Below, in pieces: positions 5,419 through 60,093 of a stretch of 64,000 bases of DNA. The stretch's first letter is position 1. Each line of letters starts with the position of its first letter. The position numbers and the translations under genes are program-made. The notes below the pieces were generated by a model, which ran no database searches, had not been told where the DNA came from, and worked only from the letters and a program-made list of their open reading frames with translations. Source of the DNA: Escherichia coli (GTDB lineage: Bacteria > Pseudomonadota > Gammaproteobacteria > Enterobacterales > Enterobacteriaceae); NCBI RefSeq assembly GCF_029227855.1, contig NZ_CP074356.1, one strand, 5' to 3'.

Positions 5419-5735
5419 AAAATTCCCCTATCCAACTTTGGCACATCTATTGCTTTGTTATACAAGGCAAAGCTTGAACCAGCATCAGTACAACCCGGTT
5501 GCACCACAGCAATCCACGGGTAGCACCAAAAGAGTGCATTTTAAGAATTTTGCTTCGGAATGGTGCGGCGCATCTCGCAAAAACAAACAATAAAACAGCA
5601 ATATCTTTACATTTAACCAAACTAAATGTTACCTAACAGGCACAACACTGCACAATAAAGTTGCAGACGATAACAACACAAACACTCACAACAGGTATCC
5701 ATGCGTTCTTAACGCAGAAGATAAAGGAGTTGGAT

Positions 5736-6644
5736 ATGCAATTACGTAAACCTGCCACAGCAATCCTCGCCCTGGCGCTTTCCGCAGGACTGGCACAGGC
5801 AGATGACGCCGTCCCGGCAGCAGGCAGTACGCTGGACAAAATCGCCAAAAACGGCGTGATTGTCGTCGGTCACCGTGAATCTTCAGTACCTTTCTCTTAT
5901 TACGACAATCAGCAAAAAGTGGTGGGTTACTCGCAGGATTACTCCAACGCCATTGTTGAAGCAGTGAAAAAGAAACTCAACAAACCGGACTTGCAGGTAA
6001 AACTGATTCCGATTACCTCACAAAACCGTATTCCACTGCTGCAAAACGGCACTTTCGATTTTGAATGTGGTTCTACCACCAACAACGTCGAACGCCAAAA
6101 ACAGGCGGCTTTCTCTGACACTATTTTCGTGGTCGGTACGCGCCTGCTGACCAAAAAGGGCGGCGATATCAAAGATTTCGCCGATCTGAAAGGTAAAGCC
6201 GTAGTCGTCACTTCCGGCACTACCTCTGAAGTTTTGCTCAACAAACTGAATGAAGAGCAAAAAATGAATATGCGAATTATCAGCGCCAAAGATCACGGTG
6301 ACTCTTTCCGCACCCTGGAAAGCGGTCGTGCCGTTGCCTTTATGATGGATGATGCTCTGCTGGCTGGTGAACGTGCGAAAGCGAAGAAACCAGACAACTG
6401 GGAAATCGTCGGCAAGCCGCAGTCTCAGGAAGCCTACGGTTGCATGTTGCGTAAAGACGATCCGCAGTTCAAAAAGCTGATGGATGACACTATCGCTCAG
6501 GTGCAGACCTCCGGTGAAGCGGAAAAATGGTTTGATAAATGGTTCAAAAACCCAATTCCGCCGAAAAACCTGAACATGAATTTCGAACTGTCAGACGAAA
6601 TGAAAGCACTGTTCAAAGAACCGAATGACAAGGCACTGAACTAA
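5736..6644 (+). CDS. gltI: Glutamate/aspartate periplasmic binding protein GltI
   Basis: ATG at 5736 with aaggag RBS and signal peptide MQLRKPATAILALALSAGLAQA; ORF track extends to 5661 in frame. Confidence 0.93.
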   Translation: MQLRKPATAILALALSAGLAQADDAVPAAGSTLDKIAKNGVIVVGHRESSVPFSYYDNQQKVVGYSQDYSNAIVEAVKKKLNKPDLQVKLIPITSQNRIPLLQNGTFDFECGSTTNNVERQKQAAFSDTIFVVGTRLLTKKGGDIKDFADLKGKAVVVTSGTTSEVLLNKLNEEQKMNMRIISAKDHGDSFRTLESGRAVAFMMDDALLAGERAKAKKPDNWEIVGKPQSQEAYGCMLRKDDPQFKKLMDDTIAQVQTSGEAEKWFDKWFKNPIPPKNLNMNFELSDEMKALFKEPNDKALN

Positions 6645-6800
6645 TTACAAGAACCAGGGGCGGAAATTCCAGCCCTCTCGATTGTTACGTAGCACGGACA
6701 GACTATACGCCTGATGGTCGTTCCCCATCGGGCCTGAAAACCGCAATACGCTGGGTAACAATCTTCGAGGGTAGCAGTTAACGCTGCTACCCTCTTTTTT
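6640..6800 (+). ncRNA. sroC: SroC-like sRNA processed from the gltI-gltJ spacer (GcvB sponge)
   Basis: Position at gltI 3' end/gltI-gltJ spacer ending at a strong intrinsic terminator matches the known location of SroC; 5' boundary approximate. Confidence 0.5.
6767..6800 (+). terminator. Intra-operon intrinsic terminator between gltI and gltJ
   Basis: Perfect 11-bp stem gagggtagcag/ctgctaccctc with loop ttaacg followed by tttttt. Confidence 0.8.
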
Positions 6801-6813
6801 CTGGAGTAGATTT

Positions 6814-7554
6814 ATGTCTATAGACTGGAACTGGGGTATTTTTTTACAACAAGCCCCGTTCGGCAACACCACCTATCTTGGTTGGATCTGGAGTGGTTTT
6901 CAGGTGACGATCGCTTTGTCGATCTGCGCCTGGATTATCGCTTTCCTCGTCGGTTCATTTTTCGGCATTTTACGTACCGTTCCAAACCGTTTTCTCTCCG
7001 GTCTGGGTACGTTGTATGTCGAACTGTTCCGCAACGTGCCGTTGATTGTGCAATTCTTTACCTGGTATCTGGTGATCCCGGAGCTGTTGCCGGAGAAAAT
7101 CGGCATGTGGTTTAAGGCCGAGCTGGATCCCAATATTCAGTTTTTCCTTTCATCCATGCTTTGCCTGGGGCTGTTTACCGCCGCCCGTGTTTGCGAACAG
7201 GTACGCGCCGCGATCCAGTCGCTGCCGCGTGGGCAGAAGAATGCCGCGCTGGCGATGGGTCTGACGCTGCCGCAGGCTTACCGCTATGTACTGTTGCCTA
7301 ATGCTTATCGCGTTATCGTCCCGCCGATGACCTCCGAGATGATGAACCTGGTGAAAAACTCCGCCATCGCCTCGACCATCGGTCTGGTGGATATGGCAGC
7401 GCAGGCCGGTAAATTGCTTGATTACTCAGCCCACGCCTGGGAGTCGTTTACCGCCATTACGCTTGCGTATGTGTTGATTAACGCTTTTATCATGCTGGTG
7501 ATGACGCTGGTTGAACGTAAAGTTCGCCTGCCCGGCAACATGGGGGGCAAATAA
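6814..7554 (+). CDS. gltJ: Glutamate/aspartate ABC transporter permease GltJ
   Basis: 246 aa polar amino-acid ABC permease; follows gltI. Confidence 0.94.
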
Positions 7555-8228
7555 TGTACGAGTTTGACTGGAGTTCCATTGTCCCTTCCCTGCCATATCT
7601 GCTGGATGGGCTGGTGATCACCCTGAAAATCACCGTCACGGCAGTCGTGATTGGTATTTTGTGGGGCACCATGCTGGCGGTGATGCGCTTGTCCAGCTTT
7701 GCGCCCGTAGCGTGGTTTGCCAAAGCCTACGTTAACGTATTCCGCTCGATTCCTTTAGTTATGGTTTTGCTGTGGTTTTACCTGATTGTGCCGGGTTTTC
7801 TGCAAAACGTGCTGGGATTATCGCCAAAAAATGATATCCGTTTAATTTCGGCAATGGTGGCGTTTTCGATGTTTGAAGCGGCCTACTATTCAGAGATTAT
7901 CCGTGCCGGTATTCAAAGTATTTCCCGTGGTCAGTCGAGCGCCGCGCTGGCGTTGGGAATGACTCACTGGCAGTCGATGAAACTGATTATTCTGCCGCAG
8001 GCTTTCCGCGCGATGGTGCCGCTGCTGCTCACTCAGGGCATCGTACTGTTCCAGGATACCTCGCTGGTGTATGTGTTATCTCTGGCCGATTTCTTCCGTA
8101 CCGCCTCAACCATTGGTGAGCGTGATGGTACGCAGGTTGAGATGATCCTGTTTGCCGGATTTGTTTATTTCGTTATTAGCCTTAGCGCGTCGTTGTTGGT
8201 CAGCTACTTGAAAAGAAGGACAGCATAA
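7554..8228 (+). CDS. gltK: Glutamate/aspartate ABC transporter permease GltK
   Basis: 224 aa permease; TAATG overlap with gltJ. Confidence 0.94.
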
Positions 8229-8953
8229 TGATTACCCTGAAAAATGTTTCAAAATGGTATGGTCACTTTCAGGTGCTGACCGACTGCTCAACCGAAGTGA
8301 AAAAAGGCGAAGTGGTGGTGGTTTGCGGCCCGTCTGGTTCCGGTAAATCAACGCTGATTAAAACCGTCAACGGCCTCGAACCGGTGCAGCAAGGTGAAAT
8401 CACCGTCGATGGTATCGTGGTTAACGATAAGAAAACCGATCTGGCAAAGCTGCGTTCCCGCGTCGGGATGGTGTTCCAGCATTTCGAGTTGTTCCCCCAT
8501 TTGTCGATTATTGAAAACCTGACCCTGGCGCAGGTGAAAGTGCTAAAACGCGATAAAGCACCCGCTCGTGAAAAAGCATTGAAATTGCTGGAGCGCGTCG
8601 GGCTTTCCGCTCATGCCAATAAGTTTCCGGCGCAGCTTTCCGGCGGTCAGCAGCAGCGTGTGGCGATCGCTCGCGCATTGTGCATGGATCCTATTGCCAT
8701 GCTGTTCGACGAACCGACATCGGCGCTGGATCCGGAGATGATCAACGAAGTGCTGGACGTAATGGTCGAACTGGCGAATGAAGGAATGACCATGATGGTG
8801 GTGACCCACGAAATGGGCTTTGCCCGTAAAGTGGCGAATCGGGTGATCTTTATGGACGAGGGTAAAATTGTCGAAGACTCGCCGAAAGACGCTTTCTTCG
8901 ATGATCCGAAATCGGACCGCGCAAAAGACTTCCTCGCGAAAATCCTGCATTAA
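8228..8953 (+). CDS. gltL: Glutamate/aspartate ABC transporter ATP-binding protein GltL
   Basis: Walker [13 protein letters not shown] signature LSGGQQQR, Walker [12 protein letters not shown]. Confidence 0.95.
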
Positions 8954-9070: not shown

Positions 9071-10006
9071 ATGGCACTGCCAATTCTGTTAGATTGCGAC
9101 CCAGGTCATGACGACGCTATCGCAATAGTTCTTGCCCTCGCCTCACCAGAGCTTGATATCAAAGCAATTACGTCTTCCGCCGGAAACCAGACTCCAGAAA
9201 AAACCTTACGCAATGTTCTGCGTATGCTGACCTTGCTTAATCGCACCGATATTCCGGTGGCAGGCGGCGCGGTAAAACCGTTAATGCGTGAGTTGATTAT
9301 CGCGGACAATGTGCACGGTGAAAGCGGTCTCGACGGCCCGGCATTACCGGAACCGACGTTCGCACCGCAAAACTGTACGGCGGTAGAGCTGATGGCGAAA
9401 ACGCTGCGTGAAAGTGCGGAACCTGTCACGATTGTTTCTACCGGGCCGCAAACTAACGTTGCCTTGCTGCTCAATAGCCATCCGGAACTGCATAGCAAAA
9501 TTGCCCGTATCGTGATTATGGGCGGCGCAATGGGGCTTGGTAACTGGACGCCTGCGGCTGAATTTAATATTTACGTTGACCCGGAAGCGGCAGAAATTGT
9601 CTTCCAGTCAAGGATCCCGGTGGTGATGGCCGGTCTGGATGTTACTCATAAAGCGCAAATCCACGTTGAAGACACCGAGCGTTTCCGCGCGATTGGCAAC
9701 CCTGTTTCAACCATTGTTGCCGAACTGCTGGATTTCTTCCTCGAATATCATAAAGACGAAAAATGGGGCTTTGTCGGCGCACCGCTGCATGACCCATGCA
9801 CCATCGCCTGGCTGTTAAAACCGGAGTTGTTTACCACTGTTGAGCGCTGGGTTGGCGTGGAAACACAAGGGAAATATACCCAGGGTATGACGGTTGTTGA
9901 TTATTATTATCTGACCGGCAATAAACCGAATGCCTCTGTAATGGTCGATGTTGATCGTCAGGGCTTTGTTGATTTACTGGCTGATCGTCTGAAATTTTAC
10001 GCTTAA
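9071..10006 (+). CDS. rihA: Pyrimidine-specific ribonucleoside hydrolase RihA
   Basis: N-terminal DCDPGHDD nucleoside hydrolase motif; aaggag RBS before ATG 9071. Confidence 0.93.
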
Positions 10007-10011
10007 TCACT

Positions 10012-10036
10012 CGCCGGATGACATCACGCCATCCGG
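10012..10036. terminator. Hairpin between convergent rihA and ybeL (REP-like, possibly bidirectional terminator)
   Basis: gccggatg / catccggc 8-bp stem with 9-nt loop in the 44-bp gap. Confidence 0.45.
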
Positions 10037-10050
10037 CACCACTCATTTCA

Positions 10051-10533
10051 TTAAGGCTCGAACGGGCGTCTCTGGAACTGGTCATGACCACATTTCGGGC
10101 ATAGCGTCAGCACTTCCGGTGTATAGATCGGGAGATGGAAATGACATTTCTCGCAGACCAGATTACCCAGCCCTACCACTTCTCCGCTGTGATAAACCCC
10201 GTGATGATTGAGGTCCTGGAAAACTTCGCGCCATTCAAGCTGCGTTTTATCGGTGATGTCTGCCAGTTCCTGCCACAAGCTTTCTTTAATCACCCGCATA
10301 AAGACGCTGTCAGACTCTTCTTTCAGGCTCTCTTCATAGCTCATGGCGAACTCTTCCAGGTCACGTCTGACAGCTCGCGTCAGCTCATCGACTTCGGTTC
10401 GCGTTAACTCCCCTGTTTTTATTACGCGCTCGCGCGCCTGTTCCACCAGTGCGTCGATATCACGTTCGCCATTGCGCAGGCGTTCGCTCAGTGACGCGAC
10501 CAGTTCACGGTAATATTGAGCAACCTTGTTCAT
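10051..10533 (-). CDS. ybeL: DUF1451 zinc-ribbon protein YbeL
   Basis: 160 aa ORF, C-terminal CxxC...CxxC zinc ribbon (CEKCHF...CPKCGH). Confidence 0.88.
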   Translation of the reverse strand: MNKVAQYYRELVASLSERLRNGERDIDALVEQARERVIKTGELTRTEVDELTRAVRRDLEEFAMSYEESLKEESDSVFMRVIKESLWQELADITDKTQLEWREVFQDLNHHGVYHSGEVVGLGNLVCEKCHFHLPIYTPEVLTLCPKCGHDQFQRRPFEP

Positions 10534-10767
10534 CGTTTCATCTCCCGGGTCGTTAACTGACTATAATAATAGACGTTCTTTGTTCCTTGCTTTGCTAATA
10601 CGCCCACAAACTCTGTAAATTAATGTATGAATAATCCGGGCATCATTTCAACGTCGAATGCGCGAAAGGCTGTTTTGACGCGGACGTTTGGGCTATGCTA
10701 TGCGGATCTGAAAAACCACCTCAACGCTACATTTGTAGCCGTATTGAAAACAGGACCACTGGCTGCC

Positions 10768-13350
10768 ATGCAAGAGCAATACCGCCCGGAAGAGATAGAA
10801 TCCAAAGTACAGCTTCATTGGGATGAGAAGCGCACATTTGAAGTAACCGAAGACGAGAGCAAAGAGAAGTATTACTGCCTGTCTATGCTTCCCTATCCTT
10901 CTGGTCGACTACACATGGGCCACGTACGTAACTACACCATTGGTGACGTGATCGCCCGCTACCAGCGTATGCTGGGCAAAAACGTCCTGCAGCCGATCGG
11001 CTGGGACGCGTTTGGTCTGCCTGCGGAAGGCGCGGCGGTGAAAAACAACACCGCACCGGCACCGTGGACGTACGACAACATCGCGTACATGAAAAACCAG
11101 CTCAAAATGCTGGGCTTTGGTTATGACTGGAGCCGCGAGCTGGCAACCTGTACACCGGAATACTACCGTTGGGAACAGAAATTCTTCACCGAGCTGTATA
11201 AAAAAGGCCTGGTATATAAGAAGACTTCTGCAGTCAACTGGTGCCCGAACGACCAGACCGTACTGGCGAACGAACAAGTTATCGACGGCTGCTGCTGGCG
11301 CTGCGATACCAAAGTTGAGCGTAAAGAGATCCCGCAATGGTTTATCAAAATCACCGCTTACGCTGACGAGCTGCTCAACGATCTGGATAAACTGGATCAC
11401 TGGCCAGACACCGTTAAAACCATGCAGCGTAACTGGATCGGTCGTTCCGAAGGCGTGGAAATCACCTTCAACGTTAACGACTATGACAACACGCTGACCG
11501 TTTACACTACCCGCCCGGACACCTTTATGGGTTGTACCTACCTGGCGGTAGCGGCGGGTCATCCGCTGGCGCAGAAAGCGGCGGAAAATAATCCTGAACT
11601 GGCGGCCTTTATTGACGAATGCCGTAACACCAAAGTTGCCGAAGCTGAAATGGCAACGATGGAGAAAAAAGGCGTCGATACTGGCTTTAAAGCGGTTCAC
11701 CCATTAACGGGCGAAGAAATTCCCGTTTGGGCAGCAAACTTCGTATTGATGGAGTACGGCACGGGCGCAGTTATGGCGGTTCCGGGTCACGACCAGCGCG
11801 ACTACGAGTTTGCCTCTAAATACGGCCTGAACATCAAACCGGTTATCCTGGCAGCTGACGGCTCTGAGCCAGATCTTTCTCAGCAAGCCCTGACTGAAAA
11901 AGGCGTTCTGTTCAACTCTGGCGAGTTCAACGGTCTTGACCATGAAGCGGCCTTCAACGCTATCGCCGATAAACTGACTGCGATGGGCGTTGGCGAGCGT
12001 AAAGTGAACTACCGTCTGCGCGACTGGGGTGTTTCCCGTCAACGTTACTGGGGCGCGCCGATTCCGATGGTGACGCTGGAAGACGGTACCGTAATGCCGA
12101 CCCCGGACGACCAGCTGCCGGTGATCCTGCCGGAAGATGTGGTGATGGACGGCATTACCAGCCCGATTAAAGCAGATCCGGAGTGGGCAAAAACTACCGT
12201 TAACGGTATGCCAGCACTGCGTGAAACCGACACTTTCGACACCTTTATGGAGTCCTCCTGGTACTATGCGCGCTACACTTGCCCGGAGTACAAAGAAGGT
12301 ATGCTGGATTCCAAAGCGGCTAACTACTGGCTGCCGGTGGATATCTACATTGGTGGTATCGAACACGCCATTATGCACCTGCTCTACTTCCGCTTCTTCC
12401 ACAAACTGATGCGTGATGCAGGTATGGTGAACTCTGACGAACCAGCGAAACAGTTGCTGTGTCAGGGTATGGTGCTGGCAGATGCCTTCTACTATGTTGG
12501 CGAAAACGGCGAACGTAACTGGGTTTCCCCGGTTGATGCTATCGTTGAACGTGACGAGAAAGGCCGTATCGTGAAAGCGAAAGATGCGGCTGGCCATGAA
12601 CTGGTTTATACCGGCATGAGCAAAATGTCCAAGTCGAAGAACAACGGTATCGACCCGCAGGTGATGGTTGAACGTTACGGCGCGGACACCGTTCGTCTGT
12701 TTATGATGTTTGCTTCTCCGGCTGATATGACTCTCGAATGGCAGGAATCCGGCGTGGAAGGGGCTAACCGCTTCCTGAAACGTGTCTGGAAACTGGTTTA
12801 CGAGCACACAGCGAAAGGTGATGTTGCGGCACTGAACGTTGATGCGCTGACTGAAGATCAGAAAGCGCTGCGTCGCGATGTGCATAAAACGATCGCTAAA
12901 GTGACCGATGATATCGGCCGTCGTCAGACCTTCAACACCGCAATTGCGGCGATTATGGAGCTGATGAACAAACTGGCGAAAGCACCGACCGATGGCGAGC
13001 AGGACCGCGCCCTGATGCAGGAAGCGCTGCTGGCGGTAGTCCGTATGCTTAACCCGTTCACCCCGCACATCTGCTTCACGCTGTGGCAGGAACTGAAAGG
13101 CGAAGGCGATATCGACAACGCACCGTGGCCGGTTGCTGACGAAAAAGCGATGGTGGAAGACTCCACGCTGGTCGTGGTGCAGGTTAACGGTAAAGTCCGT
13201 GCAAAAATCACCGTTCCGGTGGACGCAACGGAAGAACAGGTTCGCGAACGTGCTGGCCAGGAACATCTGGTAGCAAAATATCTTGATGGCGTTACCGTGC
13301 GTAAAGTGATTTACGTACCCGGTAAACTCCTCAATCTGGTCGTTGGCTAA
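10768..13350 (+). CDS. leuS: Leucyl-tRNA synthetase
   Basis: 860 aa from [11 protein letters not shown]; class I HMGH and KMSKS motifs present; ORF track extends upstream in frame to 10627. Confidence 0.96.
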
Positions 13351-41537: not shown

Positions 41538-42246
41538 GTGCACAGAAAACCCCCAGCTAGGCTGGGGGTTCCGGAAAGCTTTCAGCTTTGAGCCTGTTAT
41601 TAAAACCCCTTTTGATTTGTTAAAACACCTTGCGGTCTGGCAACTGCAAGTGTCAAACAAGAAATCAAAAGGGGGTCCCAATGGGGAACGAAAAGAGCTT
41701 AGCGCACACCCGATGGAACTGTAAATATCACATAGTTTTTGCGCCAAAATACCGAAGACAGGTGTTCTACAGAGAGAAGCGTAGAGCAATAGGCAGTATT
41801 TTGAGAAAGCTGTGTGAGTGGAAAAGCGTACGGATTCTGGAAGCTGAATGCTGTGCAGATCATATCCATATGCTTGTGGAGATCCCGCCTAAAATGAGCG
41901 TATCCGGGTTTATGGGATATCTGAAAGGGAAAAGCAGTCTGATGCTTTACGAGCAGTTTGGTGATTTGAAATTCAAATACAGGAACAGGGAGTTCTGGTG
42001 CAGAGGGTACTACGTCGATACAGTGGGTAAGAACACGGCGAAGATACAGGATTACACAAAGCACCAGCTTGAAGAGGATAAAATGGGAGAGCAGTTATCG
42101 ATTCCCTATCCGGGCAGCCCGTTTACGGGCCGTAAGTAACGAAGTTGGATGCAAATGTCAGATCGTGTGCGCCTGTTAGGGCGCGGCTGGTAAGAGAGCC
42201 TTATAGGCGCATTTGAAAAACCTCCGGCTATGCCGGAGGATATTTA
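41538..42246 (+). mobile_element. IS200-family insertion sequence (IS200/IS605 family), boundaries approximate
   Basis: Single Y1 HUH transposase ORF with left-end hairpin (41549..41569), 69-nt stem sequestering the tnpA RBS (41606..41674) and right-end hairpin (42221..42239); about 709 bp, no terminal inverted repeats. Confidence 0.6.
41681..42139 (+). CDS. tnpA: IS200 transposase TnpA (HUH single-strand transposase)
   Basis: 152 aa; HuH motif (DHIHMLV) and C-terminal Tyr region; aaaggggg RBS. Confidence 0.93.
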   Translation: MGNEKSLAHTRWNCKYHIVFAPKYRRQVFYREKRRAIGSILRKLCEWKSVRILEAECCADHIHMLVEIPPKMSVSGFMGYLKGKSSLMLYEQFGDLKFKYRNREFWCRGYYVDTVGKNTAKIQDYTKHQLEEDKMGEQLSIPYPGSPFTGRK

Positions 42247-42299
42247 TTTTTGGGTATGTTTATCTGCGACACTCGCAGTACCGACGACATGGAGTAAAA

Positions 42300-42770: not shown

Positions 42771-42852
42771 CTCAAATATCAACCAGATTTATCATTTTGC
42801 TCTTAAGCGCAGCATTCTAATCTGAACTGGTTATTCATCTGCGGAACCTCAT

Positions 42853-42942
42853 ATGAGCGAAGCTCTCGGTATCACTGCATTTTATATATTCATAGCCGCG
42901 ATTATTGTTGCTGCAGTGCTATACCTTGAACAACGCTGGTAG
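42853..42942 (+). CDS. Candidate 29-aa hydrophobic small ORF (MSEALGITAFYIFIAAIIVAAVLYLEQRW)
   Basis: ATG-to-TAG ORF below the 60-aa track threshold; single predicted TM helix; weak RBS; no independent support. Confidence 0.25.
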   Translation: MSEALGITAFYIFIAAIIVAAVLYLEQRW

Positions 42943-43065
42943 CGCCTGGTTTTATTTATTTTCCAGCTCAATAGCAAATTCAGATCAAATCAGCCTCGCA
43001 AATCATAGATTCATAACCAATAATGTGCTGTTATGTATACATGCAAAAACAAGGAGAGAATGCTT

Positions 43066-45180: not shown

Positions 45181-45350
45181 GTTTATCTCCTGGGCTTTAA
45201 ACATCATCATGCAAGCGGCCTCTGCGGCTACCTGGATGCAGCTTGCATCATGGTGCGGGGAAGAAAATCGGGTGCCGCAGCACCCGAAGAATTAGGTGAA
45301 TTTCCGAAGTATTTCGCGCCGGAGTTGGTAGCGCGAAAGACGAAGGAAAT

Positions 45351-52678: not shown

Positions 52679-52790
52679 CTAAACCTCCGGTAATACAAAT
52701 GCCCTCCTGAATTAAGAGGGCTTAATTGCTATCAACACGCTCGGGCTGAGAGTAAGGGGAACGCTCAGCACATCCCCCCTCACTCTGACT

Positions 52791-59954: not shown

Positions 59955-60093
59955 TTTTCGGTCGCTAACCTAAAAGCAAACGCGCACTATGTCAACTCTT
60001 GAGGTAACGCAATCTGCAACTCGGGGTTGCATCTGGTTGTGGTTACAATGAAAATGAGAAGCATTAACTTCATTAATAACAGGAAGCTGATTT

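Follow-up and report, generated by a model that had tools for sequence, protein, structure and literature searches.

REP elements are imperfect palindromes, usually about 35 nt long in their canonical form, with ends of the consensus GCC(G/T)GATG...ATC(C/A)GGC and an adjacent GTAG/CTAC. They are mobile and tend to lie between convergent genes, and their hairpins are generally credited with 3'-end protection and read-through attenuation.

The gene order of Escherichia coli K-12 MG1655 around such a pair of convergent genes is leuS, ybeL, ybeQ, ybeR, djlB, ybeT, ybeU, djlC, hscC, rihA, gltL. The first-pass annotation of the DNA studied here stated that on the K-12 map about 8 kb, running from ybeQ to hscC, separates ybeL from rihA. 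This is accurate: MG1655 carries seven genes in the interval, the ybeL stop and the rihA stop are 7,976 bp apart, and the two genes are not direct neighbours in that reference. The full form of the cluster consists of hscC and of two diverged three-gene modules, each coding for a Sel1-repeat protein, a DUF1266 protein and either DjlB or DjlC, the two modules being about 67% identical at the DNA level. HscC is stimulated by DjlC, mutants of K-12 deleted for the HscC system show a raised sensitivity to Cd2+, and the sporadic distribution of HscC among prokaryotes suggests horizontal transfer (review PMC8215388).

The stretch of E. coli DNA analysed here is 64 kb long and is hereafter called the window. 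According to its ORF list, the genes of interest follow each other in the order gltJ, gltK, gltL, rihA (plus strand), a 44-bp spacer, ybeL (minus strand) and leuS (plus strand). The features of the locus are given below.

6814-7554, plus strand: gltJ, from the ORF list
7554-8228, plus strand: gltK, from the ORF list
8228-8953, plus strand: gltL, from the ORF list, last gene of the gltIJKL glutamate/aspartate ABC transporter operon and left core flank
9071-10006, plus strand: rihA, pyrimidine-specific ribonucleoside hydrolase, 311 aa, NCBIfam NF007761 equivalog
10007-10050, no strand assigned: spacer between the convergent stop codons, the 'empty-site' allele, exactly 44 bp, sequence TCACTCGCCGGATGACATCACGCCATCCGGCACCACTCATTTCA
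10013-10037, no strand assigned: REP-type hairpin, 25 nt, with a 9-nt loop and an 8-bp G+C-rich stem, GCCGGATG/CATCCGGC
10051-10533, minus strand: ybeL, zinc-ribbon/DUF1451 protein, 160 aa, NCBIfam NF008261 equivalog; right core flank, convergent with rihA
10768-13350, plus strand: leuS, leucine-tRNA ligase, 860 aa, TIGR00396 (1317 bits); core gene beyond ybeL

The adjacency of rihA and ybeL proposed in the first-pass annotation is real. Both proteins are identified by equivalog models, RihA scoring 637 bits against NF007761 (cut-off 433) and YbeL 299.7 bits against NF008261 (cut-off 183), and the gap has precisely the proposed length. The start of rihA was placed at the ATG at 9071, the mechanical ORF beginning at TTG 9038, and the RefSeq annotation of the identical region in NZ_AP045174.1 agrees. 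Pfam PF07295 is assigned to a protein identical to YbeL, and the gltL product is 100% identical to that of the annotated gltL of strains JNEC-KY178 and F9792. Between the window and K-12, amino-acid identity is 99% for RihA and 100% for YbeL, and K-12 LeuS matches window positions 10768-13347 at 100% (tblastn).

The window and K-12 are alike up to the stop codon of rihA from one side and up to that of ybeL from the other; between these codons the entire sequence is different, which confirms that the K-12 cluster is absent from the window. The strain is therefore presumed to be devoid of the HscC-DjlB/DjlC Hsp70 system. That it is not K-12, another point made at first reading, is clear from an identity to MG1655 of 97-98.3%, from several other insertions and deletions, and from an identity of 100% over 20 kb to its nearest genome, that of JNEC-KY178.

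The spacer contains a single REP-like hairpin, as had been noted from the sequence. It reads GCCGGATG-ACATCACGC-CATCCGGC and is sited outside coding sequence, flanked by the stop codons of rihA (10004-10006) and ybeL (10051-10053). On the minus strand, where the reading is GCCGGATGGCGTGATGTCATCCGGC, the stem is longer owing to G-U pairs. The 64 nt around the hairpin fold with an energy of -14.8 kcal/mol on the plus strand and -23.3 kcal/mol on the minus strand, with a z-score of about -3.5, and an equal fold was obtained in 0 of 200 shuffles. The hairpin pattern is found once in the 64-kb window, against 0.00 times in shuffles, and a looser REP-end pattern is likewise found once. By analogy with the role generally ascribed to REP hairpins, it would provide a common 3'-end structure for the rihA and ybeL transcripts. 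The possibility of a Rho-independent terminator was considered and rejected: a stem-loop is present, but it is followed on its 3' side by ACCACTCA on the plus strand and by GAGTGATT on the minus strand, neither of which is a U-run, and a scan for intrinsic terminators covering both strands of 9700-10800 called no site. A search of Rfam returned no RNA family in the spacer; its sole match is sroC at 6640-6802, an sRNA that is intact in the gltI-gltJ spacer of the window, as in K-12 (RF00369, 174.8 bits).

The frequency of the junction was determined in 5,426 complete E. coli genomes, using a 161-bp probe across the junction and a coverage of at least 80%. The same junction is present in 962 genomes (about 18%) with an identity of 97.5-100%, hscC in 4,410 (81%), and other contents occupy the site in about 50, so that the first-pass description of the site as variable is correct. 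Strain F9792 has a 1.3-kb, AT-rich insert at the site (36% GC), with a DUF6985 gene and two small ORFs. ST131 O25b:H4, of phylogroup B2, displays a one-module form of the cluster in which ybeR is lost, ybeT-ybeU-djlC-hscC is retained, and only remnants of djlB and ybeQ subsist. Two loci of this form are the following.

L097, 14742-15207: one-module hscC cluster, ST131 O25b:H4
L090, 10733-10951: one-module hscC cluster, standing for 44 similar places in the look-up

The empty junction is found in S88, IHE3034 and APEC O1, which are B2 strains of ST95. Besides JNEC-KY178, the genomes close to the window include strains named ST2747, porcine O139:H1/ETEC strains and a strain labelled ST69, and empty sites occur in this group. 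Since the Clermont markers lie outside the window, phylogroups were deduced solely from named close relatives, namely ST69 and O139:H1 for the window and the ST95 strains for the second clade with an empty site. Complete reading of five further E. coli loci with an empty site gave the same spacer, with one A-to-G difference in two of them. The empty junction is thus an already known and common variant, long present in public reference genomes. A literature search found no description of the rihA-ybeL locus as a hotspot.

The arrangement in other species was obtained by scanning species-representative genomes with YbeL, which yielded 80 loci in which leuS, ybeL, rihA, gltL and the seven cluster proteins were placed by tblastn. 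ybeL and rihA are directly adjacent in about 30 outgroup species, comprising eleven Citrobacter species, Salmonella enterica subsp. arizonae, and members of Kluyvera, Enterobacter, Pseudocitrobacter, Phytobacter, Trabulsiella and Lelliottia, together with Kosakonia sp. S29. The gaps are mostly 40-185 bp long and amount to a few bases only in two Trabulsiella species. rihA is missing, and ybeL abuts gltL, in most other Kosakonia, in Siccibacter, in Yokenella and in several further genera. Among the 80 loci, a set that lacked E. albertii, E. fergusonii, E. marmotae, E. ruysiae, S. enterica subsp. enterica, S. bongori and the main E. coli representative, the hscC cluster was found only in Escherichia, in E. 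whittamii, Escherichia sp. E1V33 and Escherichia sp. MOD1-EC7003. In the last of these, ybeL and ybeQ are separated by an additional segment of about 2.5 kb (L007, 10578-11906), with an ORF that is 29% identical to DjlC and is possibly part of a third module or a different J-protein. Salmonella Typhimurium LT2 presumably carries hscC-ybeV-ybeU genes at this locus, which, if so, would complicate a history with a single insertion.

One or two canonical REPs occupy the ybeL-rihA gap of C. portucalensis, C. youngae, C. braakii, S. arizonae and others. C. portucalensis, C. youngae and S. arizonae have a two-REP element made of two inverted REPs, and it is with the outer arms of this element that the hairpin of the window can be aligned: GCCGGATG starts 5-6 nt past the rihA stop and CCATCCGGCA is located 6-13 nt before the ybeL stop. 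Relative to the two-REP element, the window spacer is devoid of about 57 nt of inner sequence. The identical reduced, single-hairpin form is present in Citrobacter sp. FP75, and a diverged Escherichia lineage (L006), whose flanks are about 94-96% identical to those of the window, has a homologous spacer with few substitutions and a 5-bp difference in length. The signal amounts to about 20 positions, and part of the similarity to Citrobacter and Salmonella could reflect convergence on the REP consensus, not orthology.

The K-12 segment was compared with mobile integrative islands. Its presence varies among strains at a fixed chromosomal site, as that of a mobile island does, but this identification was rejected on other features of such islands: no integrase is found among its seven annotated genes, no tRNA is adjacent, and direct repeats beyond chance are absent from its boundaries, the longest shared k-mer being 9 nt, a length reached by about 10% of shuffles. 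Its GC content is 46.9%, against 51-53% for the flanks and 51.6% for the window, which is a modest deviation. Comparison of the 44-bp spacer with both boundaries of the K-12 island revealed no similarity beyond chance k-mers. The first-pass annotation had advised looking for direct repeats or REP scars at the junction; with no boundary repeats beyond chance, the deletion-scar reading was dropped, and the supposed scar is better read as a reduced two-REP element.

The absent cluster was also considered as a candidate anti-phage defence system. When the seven K-12 proteins were scanned with PADLOC, there were two weak hits only (E = 1e-4 and 5e-3), both of Sel1-repeat proteins to a PtuA model and with no stretch passing alone, and nothing for HscC, DjlB, DjlC or the DUF1266 proteins. 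This candidate was rejected, the PADLOC result being unconvincing and supporting literature not having been found.

The age of the two alleles can be gauged from their divergence. The cluster genes of K-12 and of cryptic Escherichia lineages share 82-96% DNA identity and the flanks 91-96%. Because the divergence of the cluster is comparable with that of its flanks, the cluster is not recent and both alleles are old. Both states occur in E. coli and in Escherichia lineages outside that species, each with its own conserved boundary sequence. Within E. coli, strain AGR6137 carries the full hscC cluster; its identity to the window reaches 99.5% over 12 kb on the leuS side (99.9% over lptE-mrdA), against 97.2% on the glt-rihA side. 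In neighbour-joining trees, the E. coli flanks form three clades, in two of which empty and occupied alleles are interleaved, and empty sites are found both in close relatives of the window (ST69, porcine O139:H1) and in the B2 ST95 strains. The AGR6137 identities and the interleaved trees form the pattern that is expected of allele exchange by homologous recombination in the flanks.

The interpretation that I consider the most probable, with good though not complete confidence, is that the empty site is the ancestral allele, that it coexists in Escherichia with an old allele containing the hscC cluster, and that homologous recombination in the flanks swaps the two. That the empty site is of ancestral type and not a deletion scar is argued by the adjacency of the two genes in outgroups, the alignment of the spacer, the homologous spacer of the diverged Escherichia lineage, the lack of bases derived from the island and the lack of repeats at its boundaries, and also by a cluster that has neither integrase nor tRNA and a GC content only modestly lower. 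The ancestral enterobacterial state would be a pair of convergent core genes, rihA and ybeL, with a short REP-containing spacer between them. This spacer would have been cut down in the window to a single 25-nt hairpin, whose arms correspond to the outer ones of a former two-REP element, while the K-12-type allele would stem from an old insertion, within the Escherichia lineage, by which the spacer was replaced in its entirety. The two alleles would have persisted in E. coli and in its sister Escherichia lineages and would pass from one lineage to another by homologous recombination in the gltJKL-rihA and ybeL-leuS flanks, with no need for a site-specific machinery. On this interpretation, K-12 is the derived state at the rihA-ybeL locus, and the 'absent island' is therefore not to be read as a deletion.

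Other histories have to be weighed against this one. One can imagine that the window lineage, or a recent ancestor, lost a K-12-type cluster in a single illegitimate or repeat-mediated event of which the spacer would be the scar. The cluster is indeed old and the majority state in E. coli, AGR6137 has it next to leuS-side flanks very similar to those of the window, and partial-deletion derivatives such as the one-module form of ST131, with its ybeQ and djlB remnants, indicate that deletions do occur inside the cluster. Yet no part of the spacer derives from the boundary regions of K-12, no repeats able to drive such an event flank the cluster, and a single spacer is common to all 962 empty sites, which independent deletions would not yield; moreover, this spacer can be aligned with REP spacers from other genera and has a homologue in a diverged Escherichia lineage. 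A de novo deletion is, on this evidence, very unlikely. An artefact of the assembly or of the window, in which a collapsed or misjoined contig would mimic adjacency, deserves practically no credence, given that the identical junction is found in 962 complete genomes from many laboratories, those of S88, IHE3034 and APEC O1 included, and in independent assemblies too.

A replacement of alleles within the window lineage is a more serious contender, to which I attach a real but minority probability. According to this scenario, an ancestor of the window lineage had the cluster and lost it secondarily, by importing through homologous recombination an empty allele that is itself of ancestral type. 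The opposite island states of AGR6137 and the window, in spite of their 99.5% identity on the leuS side as against 97.2% on the glt-rihA side, are in line with it, as are the interleaving of alleles in the flank trees and the sharing of one spacer haplotype by the B2 ST95 strains and the relatives of the window. Since the cluster is the majority state (81%) and is older than the diversification of E. coli, a loss is, for any lineage, that of the window included, no less likely than an original absence. The direction of the exchange cannot, however, be read from two genomes, and AGR6137 may equally well have gained the cluster. Finally, the hscC and empty alleles might constitute an ancient presence/absence polymorphism, shared across species boundaries within Escherichia and maintained by balancing selection. 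This proposal is improbable; if it were true, the cassette encoding HscC, the J-proteins and the DUF1266 and Sel1 proteins would have an unrecognised conditional cost and benefit, for instance a function in conflict or stress.

The site downstream of ybeL houses unrelated cargo in other genera. Two Citrobacter genomes have chaperone-usher fimbrial operons there, and Leclercia sp. 29361 has a two-partner secretion pair (TPS domain and ShlB), which Pfam confirms. Collinear ORF pairs of similar size are present at the site in another Leclercia, in Klebsiella oxytoca and in Silvania, and are putative counterparts judging by size and collinearity. Enterobacter quasihormaechei has an Hcp gene and an ORF of unknown nature. 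The segments for these taxa and for E. coli F9792 are listed here.

L015, 10552-16827: unrelated cargo at the ybeL-downstream site
L019, 10536-18736: unrelated cargo at the ybeL-downstream site
L049, 10559-13917: unrelated cargo at the ybeL-downstream site
L033, 5849-7363: unrelated cargo at the ybeL-downstream site
L003, 2670-3620: unrelated cargo at the ybeL-downstream site

Since the cargo differs from one genus to another, the 3' end of ybeL is a modest example of a recurrent insertion hotspot beside a REP-bearing spacer.

The window differs from K-12 at several other places. A copy of IS200C of about 708 bp lies between rna and rnk (41540-42248; tnpA ORF at 41630-42139, plus strand). Among the 5,426 complete genomes, one only, JNEC-KY178, has IS200C at this position, and 24 places of that genome match the 2-kb probe, presumably for the most part copies of IS200. 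The window accordingly belongs to JNEC-KY178 or to a strain nearly clonal with it. ybdR of K-12 is absent: 277 bp at 42771-43048 of the window stand in place of about 1.6 kb of K-12 (641884-643496), which leaves yldA/rnk and uspG nearly adjacent, as they are in other strains, including one labelled EcN_Sk. The IS5D element that K-12 has between gltI and lnt (K-12 687851-689045) is absent from the window at 5632-5636. The same gltI-lnt interval accommodates, in many E. coli including ST131 O25b:H4, a gene for a 625-aa rhomboid-family protease that is absent from both the window and K-12, and thereby counts as a second variable spot, which lies about 5 kb away from the rihA-ybeL junction. This gene was located as follows.

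L087, 15253-17130: rhomboid-family protease gene
L091, L093, L096, L090, L097 3506-5383: rhomboid-family protease gene

Small intergenic indels relative to K-12 are found at 45324-45331 (ahpC-ahpF), 52693-52770 (cstA-ybdD) and 60064-60066 (fepB-entC), where the K-12 lengths are 81, about 145 and 184 bp, respectively. Indels of this size are suggestive of gained or lost REP-type elements.

The absence of the cluster matters little beyond annotation: it tells that the window is not K-12, groups it with JNEC-KY178 and points to a strain in which a chaperone system is lacking. The polarity of the change is the useful correction.

How the locus relates to described systems can now be stated. The window hairpin resembles REP/BIME elements in being extragenic, between two 3' ends, in being a G+C-rich palindrome with the end motifs GCCGGATG...ATCCGGC, and in that Citrobacter and Salmonella arizonae have canonical REP or two-REP elements at the orthologous position. 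It differs from them by its length of 25 nt only, by the lack of an inner palindrome and of a flanking GTAG/CTAC, and by being single-copy within the 64-kb window, whereas REPs exist in many copies. It is best called a REP remnant, the probable reduced form, as judged from the alignment, of an ancestral two-REP element. The comparison with HscC-DjlB/DjlC, the third Hsp70 system of E. coli K-12, is one of absence: the gene set of this system is exactly the segment that is missing here, and the window carries none of its genes. As a whole, the leuS-ybeL/rihA-gltL interval is an accessory-region polymorphism of the E. coli pan-genome, with conserved core flanks and alternative contents, these being nothing at all, hscC with two modules, hscC with one module, or the 1.3-kb DUF6985 insert. 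No integrase is present, the alleles probably moving by homologous recombination, and the interval is not different in kind from the other regions of this class.
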